Source: a virus
Length of the DNA stretch: 37,165 bases
UHGV virus genome: UHGV-0093680
Strand: one strand, 5' to 3'
Under the pieces are notes generated by a model. The model saw only the letters and a list, made by a program, of their open reading frames with translations, was not told where the DNA came from and made no database searches. A program made the position numbers and the translations under genes. Positions 12,275 to 20,121 of the stretch are shown here, piece after piece. Position 1 is the stretch's first letter, and each line of letters begins with the position of its first letter.

Positions 12275-12886
12275 ATGCGAATAAAAAAACTAATTGATCA
12301 CGATGAGCTTCTGTCAACATTATCATATGACTCAGAAACAGGAATATTTAAATGGCTAAAAACAAATTCAGTAGTAAGAGTAAAAGGTAGTATTGCTGGA
12401 GGTGTTAGTGGTGGTTATATATGCATTAGCATAAATAATGTTTTGTATTATGCGCATAGACTTGCTTGGTTCTATGTATACAAAAAATGGCCTCCTAAGT
12501 TTATTGATCATGTAAATGGGAACAGACTTGACAATAGGATTTCAAATCTAAGACTGGCAACAGAGGAGCAGAATGCAAGAAACATTGTAGGGAATAGGTT
12601 AAACACATCCGGTGCGATTGGAGTGTCTTGGGATAAGACAACTGGCAGGTGGAAGTCTTATGTTGGTTATAAAAATAAGACAATATCGTTAGGGTATTTC
12701 GATAGCAAAGAAGATGCAGCATTCATAGCAGCACTAGCAAGAAAGAAACTATATGGAACTTATGCGAGTAAAGCACTTAATTGCGAGCATGAGCTTTTAT
12801 CTCAATTTAATAATGATGAGGATAAACTTGCGGAATATCTTAAGGAAAAATCTAAAAGGACTCGAAAGCGTGTTAAAAAAAGATAA
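12275..12886 (+). CDS. HNH endonuclease with AP2-type DNA-binding domain
   Basis: HNH motif IDHVNGNRLDNRISNLRLATEEQNARN followed by an AP2-like segment; sits in a visibly AT-rich island with no clear SD. Confidence 0.75.
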   Translation: MRIKKLIDHDELLSTLSYDSETGIFKWLKTNSVVRVKGSIAGGVSGGYICISINNVLYYAHRLAWFYVYKKWPPKFIDHVNGNRLDNRISNLRLATEEQNARNIVGNRLNTSGAIGVSWDKTTGRWKSYVGYKNKTISLGYFDSKEDAAFIAALARKKLYGTYASKALNCEHELLSQFNNDEDKLAEYLKEKSKRTRKRVKKR

Positions 12887-14641: not shown

Positions 14642-15290
14642 TGGCAGCAAATACCGAAATATTTGGGTAGTTGGCGATCTGCACGGATGCTACACGAACC
14701 TGATGAAAAAACTGGAGACGATAGGATTCGACACCAAAAAAGACCTGCTTATCTCGGTTGGCGATTTGGTCGATCGCGGTACAGAGAACGTCGAATGCCT
14801 GGAATTAATCACATTCCCCTGGTTCAGAGCTGTACGTGGAAACCATGAGCAAATGATGATTGATGGCTTATCAGAGCGCGGAAACGTCAATCACTGGATG
14901 CTTAATGGCGGTGGCTGGTTCTTTAATCTCGATTACGACAAAGAAATTCTGGCTAAAGCTCTTGCCCATAAAGCAGATGAACTTCCGTTAATCATCGAAC
15001 TGGTGAGCAAAGATAAAAAATATGTCATCTGCCACGCCGATTATCCTTGTGACGAATACGAGTTTGGAAAGCCAGTTGATCATCAGCAGGTAATCTGGAA
15101 CCGAGAACGAATCAGCAACTCACAAGACGGGATCGTGAAAGAAATTAAAGGCGCGGACACGTTCATCTTTGGTCATACGCCAGCAGTGAAACCGCTCAAA
15201 TTTGCCAACCAGATGTATATCGATACCGGCGCAGTGTTCTGCGGAAAGCTCACATTGATTCAGGTACAGGGAGAAGGCGCGTGGGCATAA
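14619..15290 (+). CDS. ninI: Ser/Thr protein phosphatase (lambda NinI / PPase-like)
   Basis: In-frame ATG within ORF 14544..15290; metallophosphatase motifs GDLHG, GDLVDRG, GNHE; starts [25 protein letters not shown] as in the lambda phosphatase. Confidence 0.85.
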
Positions 15291-15769
15291 GAGAACTAAA
15301 CCTCACCAAAGAACAGCACGATTGGCTGAATGGCTGGCTTGAACTGTGGGGCGCATGGGTTTATTCAGGCCGCCTGGAAAAGCGCATGAGCAGCGTAATA
15401 GCGAAGTTCATGGAGAGCGTAGAGCCGGGAAGAGTTATGACAAGGCCAATGTGTAATGATGATGATGGAATGTTGATTTCTCAGGTCGTCGATTCCGTCA
15501 TGTGCATTGACAAGAAAGCCTTTGGCATCCTCCTCAGCTACTACGCTCATGGATCTTCCAAGCATGCCATTGCATCTTACTATCATCGTGCCGCAAGACC
15601 TCGCAAGATGTTATGCCGGGGCGGCGGGCGTATTCAAAAACCATCGCTCGCAACCTGTCGCCGGGAAGTTGACGAAATCCTCAATGCCTCGTTGTTTATG
15701 ATTTACCCGGTTCTGGATAGTGCGTTTAAAAACCGGAAACGTGTAGAGAAAATTAAACATGTAGCATAG
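15281..15769 (+). CDS. Q: Q-type late antiterminator (QuuD / phage-82-like family)
   Basis: Segment LELWGAWV…[21 protein letters not shown] resembles the DLP12 QuuD-type Q as I recall it; sits after the nin block and before the late promoter; GTG start after GGAGAAGG. Confidence 0.6.
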
Positions 15770-15775
15770 AATGTG

Positions 15776-15805
15776 TTGACATCATTGAGCAAATGAGCAA
15801 CACTA
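15776..15805 (+). promoter_or_regulatory. Candidate late promoter pR'
   Basis: TTGACA hexamer just after the Q stop, with a weak -10 about 17 nt downstream; a qut site is expected here but not resolved. Confidence 0.4.
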
Positions 15806-15825
15806 TTCGCATAAGCTGCCGTTAG

Positions 15826-15860
15826 TGACTCTTAAGTTGCAACGGTGGCTTTTTTTATTT
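15826..15860 (+). terminator. Candidate tR' terminator
   Basis: Imperfect 8-bp stem (CTGCCGTT…AACGGTGG) followed by TTTTTTTATTT, about 50 nt downstream of the candidate pR'. Confidence 0.5.
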
Positions 15861-15935
15861 GGGGCAGTCGTATAAAGGTCATTACGGAAGGCTGTTAACC
15901 TTCTTATCGTGGTTCGAGTCCACGCTGTCCCGCCA
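15861..15935 (+). tRNA. tRNA-like gene, anticodon GUU (Asn) by manual folding
   Basis: Acceptor stem GGGGCAG/CTGTCCC (one G-U pair), anticodon stem GAAGG/CCTTC with loop CTGTTAA, T-arm CGTGG-TTCGAGT-CCACG, discriminator G, encoded CCA; D-stem only 3 bp. Confidence 0.5.
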
Positions 15936-15940
15936 AATAT

Positions 15941-16016
15941 GCTGGTTTAGCTCCAATGGTAGAGCAGTCGCCTTGTAAGCGAATGGGTGGCGGTTCAAGT
16001 CCGTCAACCAGCACCA
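15941..16016 (+). tRNA. tRNA-like gene, anticodon UGU (Thr) by manual folding
   Basis: Acceptor stem GCTGGTT/AACCAGC, D-arm GCTC-CAATGGTA-GAGC, anticodon loop CTTGTAA, T-arm GGCGG-TTCAAGT-CCGTC, encoded CCA; one mismatch in the anticodon stem. Confidence 0.55.
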
Positions 16017-16059
16017 TAACTGAGCCGTAGCCACTGGCTATCCTGAATTCATCAGTGAT

Positions 16060-16092
16060 AGTTACGCTGCGGCCTTCTTTTTTCCCCTTCCC
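16060..16092 (+). terminator. Possible terminator between the tRNA locus and the holin gene
   Basis: GC-rich segment (CGCTGCGGCC) followed by TTCTTTTTTCC; the stem is not cleanly defined. Confidence 0.3.
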
Positions 16093-16134
16093 AATATAAG
16101 AACTACGCAATCCGTTACTGGCGGAGGCGTTGCT

Positions 16135-16350
16135 ATGAAATCAATGGACAAAATCTCAACTGGCATTGCCTACGGAACATCCGCTGGTAGTGCGGGATAC
16201 TGGTTTTTGCAGTGGTTGGATCAGGTCAGTCCATCACAGTGGGCTGCGATTGGTGTACTGGGGAGTCTGGTTCTGGGCTTCCTGACTTATCTGACAAATC
16301 TGTACTTCAAAATCAGAGAAGACAAGCGTAAGGCTGCACGGGGAGAGTAA
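16135..16350 (+). CDS. S: Class II pinholin, phage-21 S-type, with dual start motif
   Basis: [63 protein letters not shown]… is near-identical to S21 as recalled; 71 aa, two TM segments, Met1/Met4 dual starts; GGAGG upstream. Confidence 0.9.
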
Positions 16351-16354
16351 TTCA

Positions 16355-17161
16355 ATGACTCAAAACTATGAACTGATTGTGAAAGGGATCCGCAATTTTG
16401 AGAATAAAGTTACGGTAACTTTAGCGTTACGGGACAAAAAACGCTTTGACGGTGAAATTTTTGACCTGGACATCTCGCTGGACCGTGTTGAAGGTGCCGC
16501 GCTGGAGTTTTATGAGGCAGCAGCCAGAAGGAGCATCAGACAGGTCTTCCTGGATGTTGCTGCCGGGTTATGTGAAGGGGATGAGCAGTCGCCGGAAAAG
16601 CGCCCCGTAATTTTAGAGGCGCAGGATGTGTTGATAACCTGCAAAGGAAAGCTACCGGGAAGAATTACTGGTTCTCTGAAGATGCCGCCGTCAACACTGC
16701 GGTCAGAAAAAGAGGCGTCTTGTCTGCAGTCTGAGTACTCCATTACGGTTAAAAGTGCCGGAGAGGAAGGAAATAAACGTTATTTTATTGCGTCTGCACC
16801 TGATAAAGATCAGGAATGGGAGTGTAACCGGCCATCCTTTGTTGTATACGGAGATGGCGGGAAAATAACCATCTCAGAAAATGGGAAATTAACACCGCCA
16901 TCGCACCAGCATAGTGAGGCGCTCATTGAATTTGCCATTGATTACCTGAAGAACAATAAAAAGCAGGGGCTGATGAAGCGCATTGGTCATTGCATGGGAT
17001 ATCTGCAGATAGCTGCTGAGATTGAAGCGCTGGCCAGTGGTGCGGACAAGGATGCAGTTGTGCGGGAGGCTCTTCTTCGTGATTTTGATAATCCGCCCTT
17101 TAAAAAAGTGCCGGCTTACTGGTTTCATCCAGGACTGACTTATCTTAAAGGACGTATATAA
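16355..17161 (+). CDS. Unknown 268-aa protein inserted between holin and endolysin
   Basis: Starts 4 nt after the holin stop with GGGGAGAG upstream; predicted soluble; no motif recognised. Confidence 0.65.
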   Translation: MTQNYELIVKGIRNFENKVTVTLALRDKKRFDGEIFDLDISLDRVEGAALEFYEAAARRSIRQVFLDVAAGLCEGDEQSPEKRPVILEAQDVLITCKGKLPGRITGSLKMPPSTLRSEKEASCLQSEYSITVKSAGEEGNKRYFIASAPDKDQEWECNRPSFVVYGDGGKITISENGKLTPPSHQHSEALIEFAIDYLKNNKKQGLMKRIGHCMGYLQIAAEIEALASGADKDAVVREALLRDFDNPPFKKVPAYWFHPGLTYLKGRI

Positions 17162-17203
17162 GCTGGCTCGTTATCTGTTGCCGATAAATCCTGATAAATA
17201 TCC

Positions 17204-17737
17204 ATGAACACCAAAATCAAATACGGCCTGTCGGCTGCCGTTCTGGCGCTGATTGCCGCTGGTGCGCCTGCGCCTGACATTCTCGACCAGTTTCTGGATG
17301 AAAAGGAAGGTAACCACACTACGGCATACCGCGATGGTTCCGGCATCTGGACCATCTGTCGGGGTGCCACGATGGTGGATGGAAAACCCGTTTTTCCCGG
17401 TATGAAACTGTCGAAGGAAAAATGCGACCAGGTTAACGCTATTGAACGTGATAAGGCGCTGGCATGGGTGGATCGCAATATTAAAGTAACACTGACCGAA
17501 CCACAAAAAGCGGGTATCGCGTCATTTTGTCCCTATAACATTGGCCCCGGTAAGTGTTTCCCGTCGACGTTTTATAAGCGGCTGAATGCCGGTGATCGTA
17601 AGGGGGCATGCGAAGCGATTCGCTGGTGGATTAAGGATGGTGGGCGCGATTGCCGCATACGTTCAAATAACTGCTATGGGCAAGTTATTCGTCGTGACCA
17701 GGAAAACGCATTAGCCTGTTGGGGGATAGAGCAGTGA
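17204..17737 (+). CDS. R: SAR endolysin (T4-lysozyme-like fold)
   Basis: N-terminal signal-anchor-release segment [17 protein letters not shown] followed by the lysozyme catalytic region (E…D…T around [20 protein letters not shown]). Confidence 0.85.
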
Positions 17738-18171
17738 GCAGAGTCGCCGCGATTATTTATGCTCTGGTTATCTGCACCATCGTCTGCCTGTCATGGGCTG
17801 TTAATCATTACCGTGATAACGCCATCGCCTACAAAGACCAGCGCGATAAAGCCACATCTATCATCTCTGATATGCAGAAGCGTCAACGTGATGTAGCTGA
17901 ACTCGACGCCAGATACACAAAGGAGCTTGCTGATGCTAACGCGACTATCGAAAGTCTCCGTGCTGATGTTTCTGCTGGTCGTAAGCGCCTGCAAGTCGCC
18001 GCCACCTGTGCAAAGTCAACGACCGGAGCCAGCAGCATGGGCGATGGAGAAAGCCCAAGACTTACAGCAGATGCTGAACTCAATTATTACCGTCTCCGAA
18101 GTGGAATCGACAGGATAACCGCGCAGGTTAACTACCTGCAGGAATACATCAGGACGCAATGCCTGAAATAA
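17734..18171 (+). CDS. Rz: Rz i-spanin
   Basis: GTG start overlapping the endolysin stop (GTGA); N-terminal TM ([17 protein letters not shown]) and coiled coil; aligns by eye with lambda Rz (…[21 protein letters not shown]…). Confidence 0.85.
17927..18118 (+). CDS. Rz1: Rz1 o-spanin, embedded in Rz in the +1 frame
   Basis: Lipobox LLVVSAC followed by a Pro-rich periplasmic region ([16 protein letters not shown]); entirely nested within Rz. Confidence 0.8.
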
Positions 18172-18201
18172 TTTTTTGCAAATCACAAAGTCCATTTAAT
18201 G

Positions 18202-18228
18202 AGCCTCGCGATGCGGGGCTTTTTTTAC
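18202..18228 (+). terminator. Rho-independent terminator after the lysis cassette
   Basis: Hairpin AGCCTCGC-loop-GCGGGGCT followed by TTTTTTT, about 30 nt after the Rz stop. Confidence 0.75.
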
Positions 18229-18375
18229 ATCTGAATTTCACAGCGCATCTCACGCGCATATTACATCACCCGAGCCTTTCAGAAAGTTGAGCCTGAGAAC
18301 TGCCGTATATGGTGGCGACCATCTCGGGGCGGCTTTTCTGTGAGACAGGCTCACTTTCTAAAAGGTAAAGACGCT

Positions 18376-18864
18376 ATGAACCAATTAGAAGAAAAGCTTC
18401 AAAGAATGATTTCCTTATACAAGGAAGATAACTGCCAAAAAGTTCCTGAAAACATCGCAGAGTTAATGGAATTGGCAAGTGAATTTTCTGGCATGCTTAA
18501 GTCGTCAGGTGTTCGGTCAGCGTTCTTTGTTGAAATGCTGATGCACGGCGGACTTATGGCAACAATGAGACGTGTAATGGAAGACCAGAGAAAAGAACCT
18601 CCTCAGGTATACGTTTTGTCATCGAAGAAAACTGGGCTAACCAAAATTGGGTATTCATCCAACATTCCACAACGCATCAAATCGCTTGGCAACTCTGGAC
18701 CAGACTGCTTGAAGCTTGAGTGCCTGATCCCTGGTGGAAGAGAAACTGAAAACATGCTTCATCGCAAATTTGCCGCAAAGAGAAAGCACGGTGAATGGTT
18801 CGCCCTGTCCAAGGATGACATTGAGGGATTGAAATCTGTAGCGATTACTTCTGATGGCTATTAA
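18376..18864 (+). CDS. T5orf172 / GIY-YIG-like domain protein (putative nuclease)
   Basis: C-terminal motif block VYVLSS…LTKIGYSSNIPQRIKSLG…ETENMLHRKFAAKRKHGEWFAL fits the T5orf172 family as I recall it; ATG chosen inside ORF 18340..18864. Confidence 0.6.
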   Translation: MNQLEEKLQRMISLYKEDNCQKVPENIAELMELASEFSGMLKSSGVRSAFFVEMLMHGGLMATMRRVMEDQRKEPPQVYVLSSKKTGLTKIGYSSNIPQRIKSLGNSGPDCLKLECLIPGGRETENMLHRKFAAKRKHGEWFALSKDDIEGLKSVAITSDGY

Positions 18865-18899
18865 TGCTTGTTTAGAGCAATTTTCATAACAACTCTTCA

Positions 18900-18933
18900 T
18901 TACAAAGCCCATTTACGGGTGGGCTTGATAATG
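18900..18933. repeat. Hairpin element copy 1 (ACAAAGCCCA-loop-TGGGCTT-GATAATG)
   Basis: 7-bp stem followed by GATAATG; a second copy with the same stem and flank lies about 435 bp downstream. Confidence 0.5.
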
Positions 18934-19125
18934 AAACCGGAATTTATTCTGGGCCACCAGTTAACGGCAGTACCACGAAACAACCCAAGCCAGAAAGTGG
19001 GGAAATAACACTGGCAGCCACTGAAAGATGAACCTCCTGCCTTATGGCAAAAAAGATTCTTTGTGGTGGCGGACTGATGGAAAGACATCCGCTGAATCGA
19101 TAACGAACAAGTGGAAGATGTTGCG

Positions 19126-19296
19126 ATGGTTTCCGTAAACAAAGACCAGAAGGAAGGCGTTGAATATATCACTGGTGCTGATGGTGTGAAAAGGCCAATG
19201 GCTTATTACAAAGCGGCTGAAGAGAGGGCAAGAATGGAAAATCCCCCTAAATGCGGATCATTTTTCGACATACTGGACCTTCAATGGAAGTTGTGA
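19126..19296 (+). CDS. Hypothetical small protein (about 56 aa)
   Basis: ORF 19111..19296 with an in-frame ATG after GGAAG; followed by a terminator. Confidence 0.35.
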   Translation: MVSVNKDQKEGVEYITGADGVKRPMAYYKAAEERARMENPPKCGSFFDILDLQWKL

Positions 19297-19301
19297 ACAA
19301 C

Positions 19302-19330
19302 TAACAGGTCGCCCAGGCGGCCTTTTTTAT
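19302..19330 (+). terminator. Rho-independent terminator
   Basis: Hairpin AGGTCGC-CCAG-GCGGCCT followed by TTTTTTATT. Confidence 0.6.
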
Positions 19331-19335
19331 TGCTA

Positions 19336-19373
19336 TCACAAAAGCCATTCCTTACTGAGTGGCTTTGATAATG
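19336..19373. repeat. Hairpin element copy 2 (ACAAAAGCCA-loop-TGGCTTT-GATAATG)
   Basis: Same stem sequence and 3' GATAATG flank as copy 1, with a different loop. Confidence 0.5.
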
Positions 19374-19435
19374 GCTTATACCCTACACGGGATAACTTAA
19401 CTGATATCCCTTTTAACGGATAAACGGAGCCAACA

Positions 19436-19678
19436 ATGGCAGAGATTATTCCCATGACTGAAGAACAGAAATTCCAGTTAGAGATTTACAAACTGGTCAT
19501 GAACCAGAACGCAGCCGCAGAAGAAGCATTTCAATTCATTGGCACTGACGAACTGAAGCTTGAGCTATTCAAAATTCACTTCCAGTCAGGCGGCGCTAAT
19601 TCGGATATCACGACCCGCACTATCGAAGCGGTGCGTAAATCGAAGGAAGCGTTAGACCTGTTCACTACCGGAGCATAA
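19436..19678 (+). CDS. Hypothetical protein (80 aa) upstream of the small terminase
   Basis: ORF with GGAG upstream; stop 2 nt before the terS ATG. Confidence 0.5.
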   Translation: MAEIIPMTEEQKFQLEIYKLVMNQNAAAEEAFQFIGTDELKLELFKIHFQSGGANSDITTRTIEAVRKSKEALDLFTTGA

Positions 19679-19680
19679 AC

Positions 19681-20121
19681 ATGGCGCGCCCAACGAAGTA
19701 TCAAGAGGCGTATGCCGAACAGGCACGCAAACTGTGCTTGCTGGGCTGTACAGACGCCGAACTCGCGGACTTCTTTGAAGTTAGCGAGGCAACAATCAAC
19801 AATTGGAAATTGGAATATCCGGAGTTTTTAGAGTCCATAAAAAAGGGTAAGGCAGTCGCTGATGCAGAAGTTAGTGATCGTCTTTATCAACGCGCTATGG
19901 GCTTCGTGGCTCCAGACATCGATATTCGTGTTATTGAAAACAGAATTGTCGAAACTCCTCTTGAGAAGTATTACCCGCCTGATACAACAGCTGCCATCTT
20001 CTGGCTTAAGAACCGACAGAAGGATAAATGGCGCGACAAGGTTGATCACGAGCTAACAGGCAAAGACGGCGGCGCAATCCAGATTGAAACATCACCGATG
20101 AGCACTCTATTCGGAAAATGA
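19681..20121 (+). CDS. Terminase small subunit (Sf6 gp1-like C-terminus)
   Basis: C-terminal tail …ELTGKDGGAIQIETSPMSTLFGK matches the Sf6 small-terminase C-terminus as recalled; N-terminal HTH-like domain; ATGA overlap with terL. Confidence 0.75.
   Translation: MARPTKYQEAYAEQARKLCLLGCTDAELADFFEVSEATINNWKLEYPEFLESIKKGKAVADAEVSDRLYQRAMGFVAPDIDIRVIENRIVETPLEKYYPPDTTAAIFWLKNRQKDKWRDKVDHELTGKDGGAIQIETSPMSTLFGK

Follow-up and report, generated by a model that had tools for sequence, protein, structure and literature searches.

The window analyzed here is the whole 37,165-nucleotide (nt) sequence of the UHGV virus genome UHGV-0093680, which, judging from its gene content, belongs to a lambdoid, P22-like temperate phage. 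Between its lysis and packaging genes lies a gene for a protein of the T5orf172/MUG113 type, preceded by the intrinsic terminator after Rz and by a noncoding leader with a predicted RNA structure (Table 1). The initial annotation, made from the sequence alone, had placed a T5orf172/GIY-YIG-like predicted nuclease gene at 18229–18864 and described it as an independent unit after the lysis terminator. The plus-strand gene ahead of the packaging genes was found as described, and the strong terminator downstream of Rz was confirmed as a stem at 18201–18221 with nine pairs, six of the nine being G-C, followed by a T7 run. The start of the gene, on the other hand, was placed 147 nt away from the proper one, as bases 18229–18375 constitute a conserved structured leader. 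A start at 18229 was rejected because the frame opens only at 18340, where GTG is the first possible start codon, and a start at this GTG was also rejected because indels in the GTG-to-ATG interval of three related leaders (L005, L008, and L012) disrupt the frame. RefSeq starts HK106 gp64 and WP_016245257 at the equivalent of ATG 18376 (489 nt), and in breakpoint mapping, the homology to phages with other genes at this site stops 4–5 nt beyond the same ATG. Because of the RefSeq starts, the end of homology at the ATG, and the frame-breaking indels, the real start is, on these alignments, ATG 18376, and 18229–18375 is noncoding.

The stretch in front of the gene is shared with phages that carry other genes at the same site. 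By breakpoint mapping, the left flank (18202–18380) is conserved in HK620 and Sf101, in which the slot holds KilA-N or Rha. The same flank also lies 5' of phi80 rha, of epsilon34 gp68, which represents a second T5orf172 subtype, of Rha genes in Stx-type, Enterobacter, Hafnia, Pantoea, and Klebsiella phages, and, in a phage that was deposited as one of Actinobacillus, of a KilA-N gene. The leader identity upstream of Rha, KilA-N, and T5orf172 genes ranges from 78 to 100%. A scan of IMG/VR with the leader motif returned 120 loci, in which the cargo was Rha with ORF11CD3 in 73, KilA-N types in about 20, and T5orf172 in 15; further cargo comprised a long Rha form, ANT, HNH_3, and one protein without a recognized family, and matches in genomes added HNH_3 with AP2, HNH_3 with zf-His_Me_endon, and KilA-N with P63C. 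Both T5orf172 and HNH-AP2 genes were found behind the leader; these are the two families of homing endonucleases that have been reported where recombination boundaries lie close to terminase genes (PMC10448857). The domains found in the slot are also those of the Bro-N shuffling network (PMC10111431, PMC8096241). The window gene occupies the position of rha, in that it follows the lysis genes and has the shared terminator and leader in front of it, whereas Pfam searches of its product detected only T5orf172/MUG113 and none of the Bro network's DNA-binding domains (Rha, KilA-N, Bro-N, and ANT). A terminator hairpin of the same form but of other sequence stands 5' of every leader copy, and the terminator is therefore counted as part of the module.

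On the other side of the gene, the right-hand exchange boundary falls within 18888–18955 and varies with the phage compared. Downstream of the coding sequence (CDS), a stem-loop at 18905–18926 has no U run after it, and the next terminator-like site (19306–19323) lies past another small open reading frame (ORF). The right flank at 18950–19089 is conserved whatever cargo precedes it, with about 97% identity in all phages of the breakpoint mapping, and therefore could serve as a downstream homology arm. No convincing ORF was found in these 140 nt, although small hypothetical genes have been annotated there in some records, on one strand or the other; the epsilon34 record describes the homologous stretch as a remnant of ST64T orf118. 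Judging from the sequences compared, the terminator, structured leader, and interchangeable cargo form a modular late-operon slot that is common to P22-like, HK97-like, phi80-like, DLP12-like, and Stx phages.

Several loci outside the window display other arrangements of this module. Tandem leader–cargo units, with copies about 1 kb apart, were observed in a Pantoea genome (L150, 3492–3651 and 4821–4979), where both cargoes are KilA-N of different types, and in L232 (4853–5000 and 5712–5873), where an HNH endonuclease comes first and a long Rha second. As each of the two leader copies has its own cargo, the leader–cargo unit can duplicate in tandem. In Klebsiella phage ST15-VIM1phi2.1 (L014, 1176–1887), the terminator, leader, and Rha gene follow DUF3383 and a hypothetical gene instead of lysis genes, so that the whole module moves from one late-operon position to another. 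In a Klebsiella variicola prophage (L141, 4001–5187), a T5orf172 homologue of 76% identity starts with GTG, and its stop overlaps the start of a gene for a 232-amino-acid (aa) Endonuclease_NS protein (non-specific DNA/RNA endonuclease), an overlap that suggests a two-nuclease operon.

The same gene as in the window occurs in HK106, which is HK97-like, in DLP12-like prophages, and in phage Chlobot, and invariably follows Rz on the late strand. Among 5426 complete E. coli genomes, it is present in 80, and parts of its flanks are present in 1762. The CDS is 99.2–100% identical in 10 backgrounds, in which the identity of Rz is 90–98% and that of the leader 87–100%; in HK106, a type-B leader is combined with a CDS of 99.8% identity. 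Because the CDS is nearly identical across backgrounds with differing Rz and leader, these comparisons indicate that the CDS itself spread recently, with junctions at the leader and the right flank. Homologues of 49% and 76% identity are also found in this position, between the lysis genes and terminase, with diverged leaders. Sporadic occurrence at a conserved locus, with a gene more conserved than its flanks, corresponds to the pattern of homing-type elements.

The plus strand of the leader is predicted to fold into a long imperfect hairpin that pairs the Shine–Dalgarno sequence, with a minimum free energy (MFE) of -50.5 kcal/mol (z-score, -3.35), and RNAalifold predicts the same long stem. 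A covariance model (R1) was built on this hairpin, helix P1 not being part of the model, and its matches in Enterobacterales genomes comprised 25 plus-strand copies and one weak minus-strand copy. In the resulting alignment (A4), 92.8% of the cells are paired and both sides have changed in 24 of 37 pairs, values that 0 of 500 shuffles reached, and the paired cells dropped to 38–51% in slid controls; as the alignment was fitted to the model, these counts lean towards structure. Compensatory changes in two leaders (L137 and L141) had been spotted by eye before the model was built. In the leaders of the two distant T5orf172 homologues, CCUUU:AAAGG is replaced by CCUUA:UAAGG, and AGAAAGU:ACUUUCU by AGAAAAC:GUUUUCU or GUAGUGU:ACACCAC. 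A search of Rfam 15 with 15700–19800 gave no match for the leader at E ≤ 1 and returned only two tRNAs and one chance match.

Helix P1 has 5–7 Watson–Crick pairs in all 25 leaders (6–7 in 24 and 5 in one) and occurs in at least seven sequences (CCCGAG, CGAGAG, CCAAGA(G), CGCAGA, CUCAGAA, CACAGAA, and CAAGAG), its own strands pairing over 6.2 bp on average, as against 4.0 bp in cross-pairings. Its 5' strand abuts the base of the long hairpin, and its 3' strand is located in the apical part, about 28 bp off; because of this placement, P1 and the long hairpin are probably mutually exclusive, as far as covariation and helix geometry indicate. An alternative pairing of the P1 3' strand with CCUGAGA, which is MFE-predicted for truncated RNAs, was discarded because covarying variants do not keep it. 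A GCCG/CGGC stem with the U run was also discarded as a conserved attenuator, as the U run pairs with AGAA, covaries with it (AGAC:GUCU and AGGA:UCCU), and is missing in L141. The minus strand of 18222–18380 folds more stably than the plus strand (-60.7 vs. -50.5 kcal/mol; z-score, -5.6). A minus-strand RNA was nevertheless rejected as the functional form, as the R1 matches are essentially on the plus strand only and single-side changes give G:U pairs on the plus strand; an antisense transcript or a DNA-level role of the reverse complement may exist, with the plus strand favored by the same two observations.

The assignment of the gene product as a T5orf172/GIY-YIG-like predicted nuclease agrees with the profile matches, the predicted fold, and the catalytic residues; it is correct, yet already in public annotation. 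Of the profile matches that had been anticipated, those to MUG113 (PF13455; E-value 6e-15, 56 bits, cut-off 22.3) and T5orf172 (PF10544; E-value 2.8e-10, 41 bits, cut-off 20) were obtained in Pfam, whereas the canonical GIY-YIG family (PF01541) remained below its cut-off (12.5 vs. 22.6 bits). The protein belongs to PHROG 4284, a family with no assigned function; no NCBIfam model matched it, and sequence searches of the PDB with the protein found nothing. A PADLOC search gave a weak match to the candidate system PDC-S57 (E-value 7e-6), which covers only the shared T5orf172 domain. The AlphaFold2 model (predicted local distance difference test score, 87) consists of two domains, in which helices 3–20, 23–43, and 49–71 form an N-terminal three-helix bundle and residues 77–155 form an alpha/beta domain with the GIY-YIG-type fold that T5orf172/MUG113 proteins should have. 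In a fold search, the best structural matches were SLX1-family nucleases, and T4 EndoII was also among the matches. Membership of the GIY-YIG superfamily is by predicted fold only. No Pfam domain and no recognizable DNA-binding module was found in residues 1–72. An exhaustive profile search yielded 38,349 representatives of the C-terminal domain, only about a dozen of which have the same two-domain build; in the homologue P0030, an Rha DNA-binding domain is fused to the helical-plus-T5orf172 unit.

Across 62 diverse homologues, Y79, K90, I91, G92, R100, E125, H129, W141, and F142 are invariant. In the alignment to I-TevI, the first of these and R100 fall on Y6 and R27, respectively, and K90 falls on Tyr17, so that the second Tyr is replaced. 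E125 aligns with the catalytic E180 of Odn from phage ICP1 (hhalign probability, 92%), and the E180A substitution in Odn abolished both in vitro cleavage and, in vivo, the activity against PLE (PMC8263062). Because Y79, R100, and E125 are invariant and align with residues of I-TevI and Odn, the active site looks intact in these alignments. The protein is otherwise an ordinary, already annotated family member that adds little alone, and the leader RNA, which has no Rfam match, is the more interesting part of the locus.

With regard to expression, no sigma-70-like promoter was found on the plus strand of 17500–19800, and no conserved -35/-10 elements were present in 78 aligned leaders. A promoter between the terminator and the ATG was also considered and rejected, as none was predicted there and the hexamers picked by eye are not conserved. 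The gene for the Q antiterminator lies upstream in the window (15281–15769), and Q-modified polymerase reads through terminators. In a passage of PMC4936722 that cites Henthorn & Friedman 1995, rha is described as a late-operon gene. Because no promoter was found, Q is encoded upstream, and the same leader precedes the late-operon rha of phi80, the late transcript antiterminated by Q is the most likely source of the gene's expression. On the most economical reading, only late polymerase that resists terminators transcribes the gene, and the leader then gates translation; the terminator therefore insulates the gene in the lysogen and does not make an independent transcription unit. The independence claimed in the initial annotation therefore holds in an evolutionary sense, as the cassette is swapped between phages, but not for expression.

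A possible explanation, to which we assign an even measure of belief and doubt, was proposed for the region as a late-operon module, consisting of the Rz terminator, the leader of ~147 nt, and a swappable cargo, that carries a selfish, homing-like or competition nuclease. The gene would be transcribed solely by Q-antiterminated late polymerase through the terminator and would thus be silent in the lysogen. On the nascent RNA, P1 would form first, with the ribosome site still accessible, until the long hairpin, as the more stable structure, closed this site; the leader would gate translation in this way. The protein, probably an oligomer through its helical N-terminal domain, may cut or nick DNA by means of a Glu125-bound metal. 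Its targets could be related phage genomes with a different cassette at the locus, and the nuclease gene would then be copied into them during repair that spans the conserved leader and right flank. A homing-like or competition nuclease is favored because the comparisons indicate a recent spread of the CDS, the active site looks intact, and genes of the HNH homing type also occupy the slot. Several points weigh against this explanation. The sequence-specific DNA-binding module that would mark a homing endonuclease was not found in the protein, and 87% of T5orf172 homing endonucleases carry zinc-finger domains (PMC10448857), whereas the N-terminal domain here is acidic and helical. The occupants of the slot are mostly DNA-binding proteins and not nucleases, and the exchange could take place without a nuclease, through ordinary homologous recombination in the conserved flanks. 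As for the two-state model of the leader, the MFE folds of truncated transcripts are ambiguous and do not consistently show P1.

A wider proposal, which we put forward tentatively and consider the less probable of the two, is that the leader is an undescribed two-state riboregulator, widespread in phages of Enterobacterales, that gates a swappable late "conflict" cassette including rha, and that the T5orf172 and HNH cargoes are homing endonucleases that replace rival cassettes, with the leader and right flank as homology arms. For the long-known and unexplained tight control of rha, the leader supplies a concrete RNA structure. Furthermore, HK106, HK620, and Sf101, with their different cargo, offer a tractable E. 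coli system for T5orf172 nucleases without a DNA-binding domain and for cassette exchange.

The exact slot and leader are shared with phi80 rha and with KilA-N and ANT genes, T5orf172 co-occurs with Bro-N and KilA-N and was first predicted to bind DNA (PMC8096241), and the fusion in P0030 exists. These observations could be accommodated by a late functional analogue of Rha/KilA-N, a DNA-binding or regulatory factor of the Bro-N network that uses T5orf172 mainly for DNA binding and disturbs, for example, the replication or the repressors of the host, of satellites, or of other prophages. Such a role is unlikely, as the nuclease-site Tyr, Arg, and Glu are invariant in the 62 homologues, the aligned Glu is catalytic in Odn (PMC8263062), and HNH nucleases also occur in the slot. 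The initial annotation had implied an autonomous moron. Such a unit would be transcribed in the lysogen from a promoter of its own, and its product would be a nuclease for defence or superinfection exclusion; the upstream terminator, the typical moron position, and the weak match to PDC-S57 are in line with it. We consider it improbable because promoter-like sites on the plus strand and conserved -35/-10 elements in the 78 leaders are absent, the ribosome site is sequestered in the predicted hairpin, the PADLOC match is limited to the T5orf172 domain, and the gene is always co-oriented with the late genes.

Two other nuclease functions were weighed against a homing-like or competition nuclease. 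A structure-specific (Slx1-like) or packaging nuclease would trim branched or concatemeric DNA before headful packaging, and the SLX1-family structural matches, the late position adjoining terminase, the HNH gp74 gene that follows the HK106 copy, and the Endonuclease_NS gene that overlaps the Klebsiella prophage copy would agree with this function, to which we nonetheless give as little weight as to the moron. Late degradation of host DNA, as performed by the small GIY-YIG enzyme T4 EndoII, is very improbable. A small GIY-YIG-fold protein without a DNA-binding domain and the presence of T4 EndoII among the fold matches would suit it, but the gene is sporadic (80 of 5426 genomes) and we know of no temperate lambdoid or P22-like phage that degrades host DNA.

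Table 1. Features of the locus and gene order of the window (numbering of UHGV-0093680).
Feature	Position	Strand	Description
Intrinsic terminator after Rz	18201..18228	+	GAGCCTCGC-GAT-GCGGGGCTT, then T run; 5' edge of the module
Noncoding structured 5' leader	18229..18375	+	~147 nt holding a ~120-nt structured RNA; common to interchangeable cargo genes
Small hairpin	18243-18257	+	GCGC/GCGC; inside the leader
Helix P1	18269..18328	+	CCCGAG (18269-18274) with CUCGGG (18323-18328)
Long imperfect hairpin	18275..18365	+	Pairs Shine–Dalgarno AAAGG (18361-18365); stems CCUUU:AAAGG, AGAAAGU:ACUUUCU, GAGCCUG:CAGGCUC, AGAA:UUCU, and GCCGU:GCGGC; apical hairpin AUGGU-GGCG-ACCAU
CDS, T5orf172/MUG113 protein	18376..18864	+	162 aa, 489 nt, 18.3 kDa, pI 8.7
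N-terminal domain, residues 1-72	18376..18591	+	Acidic (pI 5.3) three-helix bundle (predicted)
C-terminal T5orf172/MUG113 domain	18592..18861	+	GIY-YIG fold (predicted)
Codon of Tyr79	18610-18612	+	
Codons of Lys90-Ile-Gly	18643-18651	+	
Codon of Arg100	18673-18675	+	
Codon of Glu125	18748-18750	+	
Codon of His129	18760-18762	+	
Cassette 3' end	18865..18949	+	Stem-loop AAGCCCA/TGGGCTT (18905-18926), no U run after it
Conserved right flank	18950..19089	+	About 96-99% identical in HK106, HK620, Sf101, DLP12-like prophages, and others; any cargo
Gene order, part 1			Replication O, primase-helicase, HNH_3+AP2 gene, NinG, phosphatase, Q antiterminator (15281-15769)
Gene order, part 2			tRNA-Asn, tRNA-Thr, P21-type holin, DUF1327 protein, lysozyme, Rz with Rz1
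Gene order, part 3			T5orf172 gene, DUF2560, small and large terminase, P22 portal, P22 coat

Other features of the window surround this locus. The nin region contains, on the plus strand at 12275–12886, a gene for an HNH_3 and AP2 protein of the "IPA-HNH" homing-endonuclease type, located between the genes for the primase-helicase and NinG; in other genomes (L229 and L104), a nuclease of this type follows the rha-type leader. Genes for tRNA-Asn(GTT) and tRNA-Thr(TGT) lie on the plus strand at 15861–16016, in the late leader region between the Q antiterminator and holin genes. Between holin and lysozyme, a plus-strand ORF of 268 aa (16355–17161) carries a DUF1327 domain at its N terminus. Its N- and C-terminal halves match different PHROG families, and this composite pattern suggests a fused or mosaic gene. 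A 63-aa ORF with a lipobox-like LVVSAC motif (17927–18118, plus strand) is nested within Rz in a different frame and probably represents the o-spanin Rz1, the equivalent of which is annotated in the phi80 and Sf101 records. The plus-strand segment 19090–19343, located after the conserved right flank and ahead of the DUF2560 gene, is an insertion specific to the window and absent in the HK620, Sf101, HK106, and DLP12-like relatives. It contains a 61-aa ORF (19111–19296) of PHROG 5425, which has no assigned function, followed by the terminator-like hairpin at 19306–19323, and a promoter-like site on the minus strand at 19190–19163.

Among known T5orf172 proteins, Odn (Gp88) of the Vibrio phage ICP1 is the one nuclease tested biochemically (PMC8263062). 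Its T5orf172 domain is also C-terminal, Y79, K-I-G, R100, and E125 of the window protein correspond to Y, K-V-G, R, and E180 of Odn, and both proteins are devoid of the usual His/Tyr of helix 1. In contrast, Odn possesses a RepA_N-like DNA-binding N-terminal domain that targets the PLE replication origin, where the window protein has an acidic three-helix bundle. The T5orf172 homing endonucleases of ICP1-like, T5-like, and other phages (PMC10448857) share with the window gene the nuclease domain, exchange boundaries, a frequent location near terminase, and sporadic occurrence; HNH-AP2 genes are found at the same kind of site, as they are here behind the leader and at 12275–12886. However, the 87% with zinc fingers bear CapR, DUF723, or DUF4397 repeats, none of which is found in the window protein, and their phages are lytic, whereas the window is the late operon of a temperate lambdoid phage.

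A counterpart in genetic context is rha of phi80 and P22, which resembles the window gene in its position after the lysis genes, in its terminator and leader (87% identity to phi80), and in its description, in the passage mentioned above, as a late-operon gene. Rha itself is an unrelated protein with a Phage_pRha DNA-binding domain and ORF11CD3. Regulation by IHF has been reported for rha (PMC4936722), whereas the window leader has no IHF consensus above chance, with only a one-mismatch match over the start codon and a window-wide count of 35 against a chance expectation of 42.

HK106 gp64 (YP_007151734) and E. coli WP_016245257 are the same gene as that of the window (99.8–100% nucleotide identity), and epsilon34 gp68, the second T5orf172 subtype, has the same leader; all three are annotated merely as "GIY-YIG nuclease family protein", with no difference of substance. 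Compared with canonical GIY-YIG proteins such as I-TevI, the UvrC N-terminal domain, and SLX1, the window protein misses the PF01541 cut-off, has Lys90 in place of the second Tyr (that of YIG), and possesses an extra conserved H-G-E-W-F strand. Leaders that sequester the ribosome-binding site and pass through a transient open state are known from the MS2 maturation gene and hok mRNA. The window leader has no sequence relationship to them but would resemble them by analogy in its long-range hairpin on the Shine–Dalgarno sequence and in an earlier-forming upstream pairing incompatible with that hairpin, and its switch may be kinetic or driven by a factor or by RNase III.
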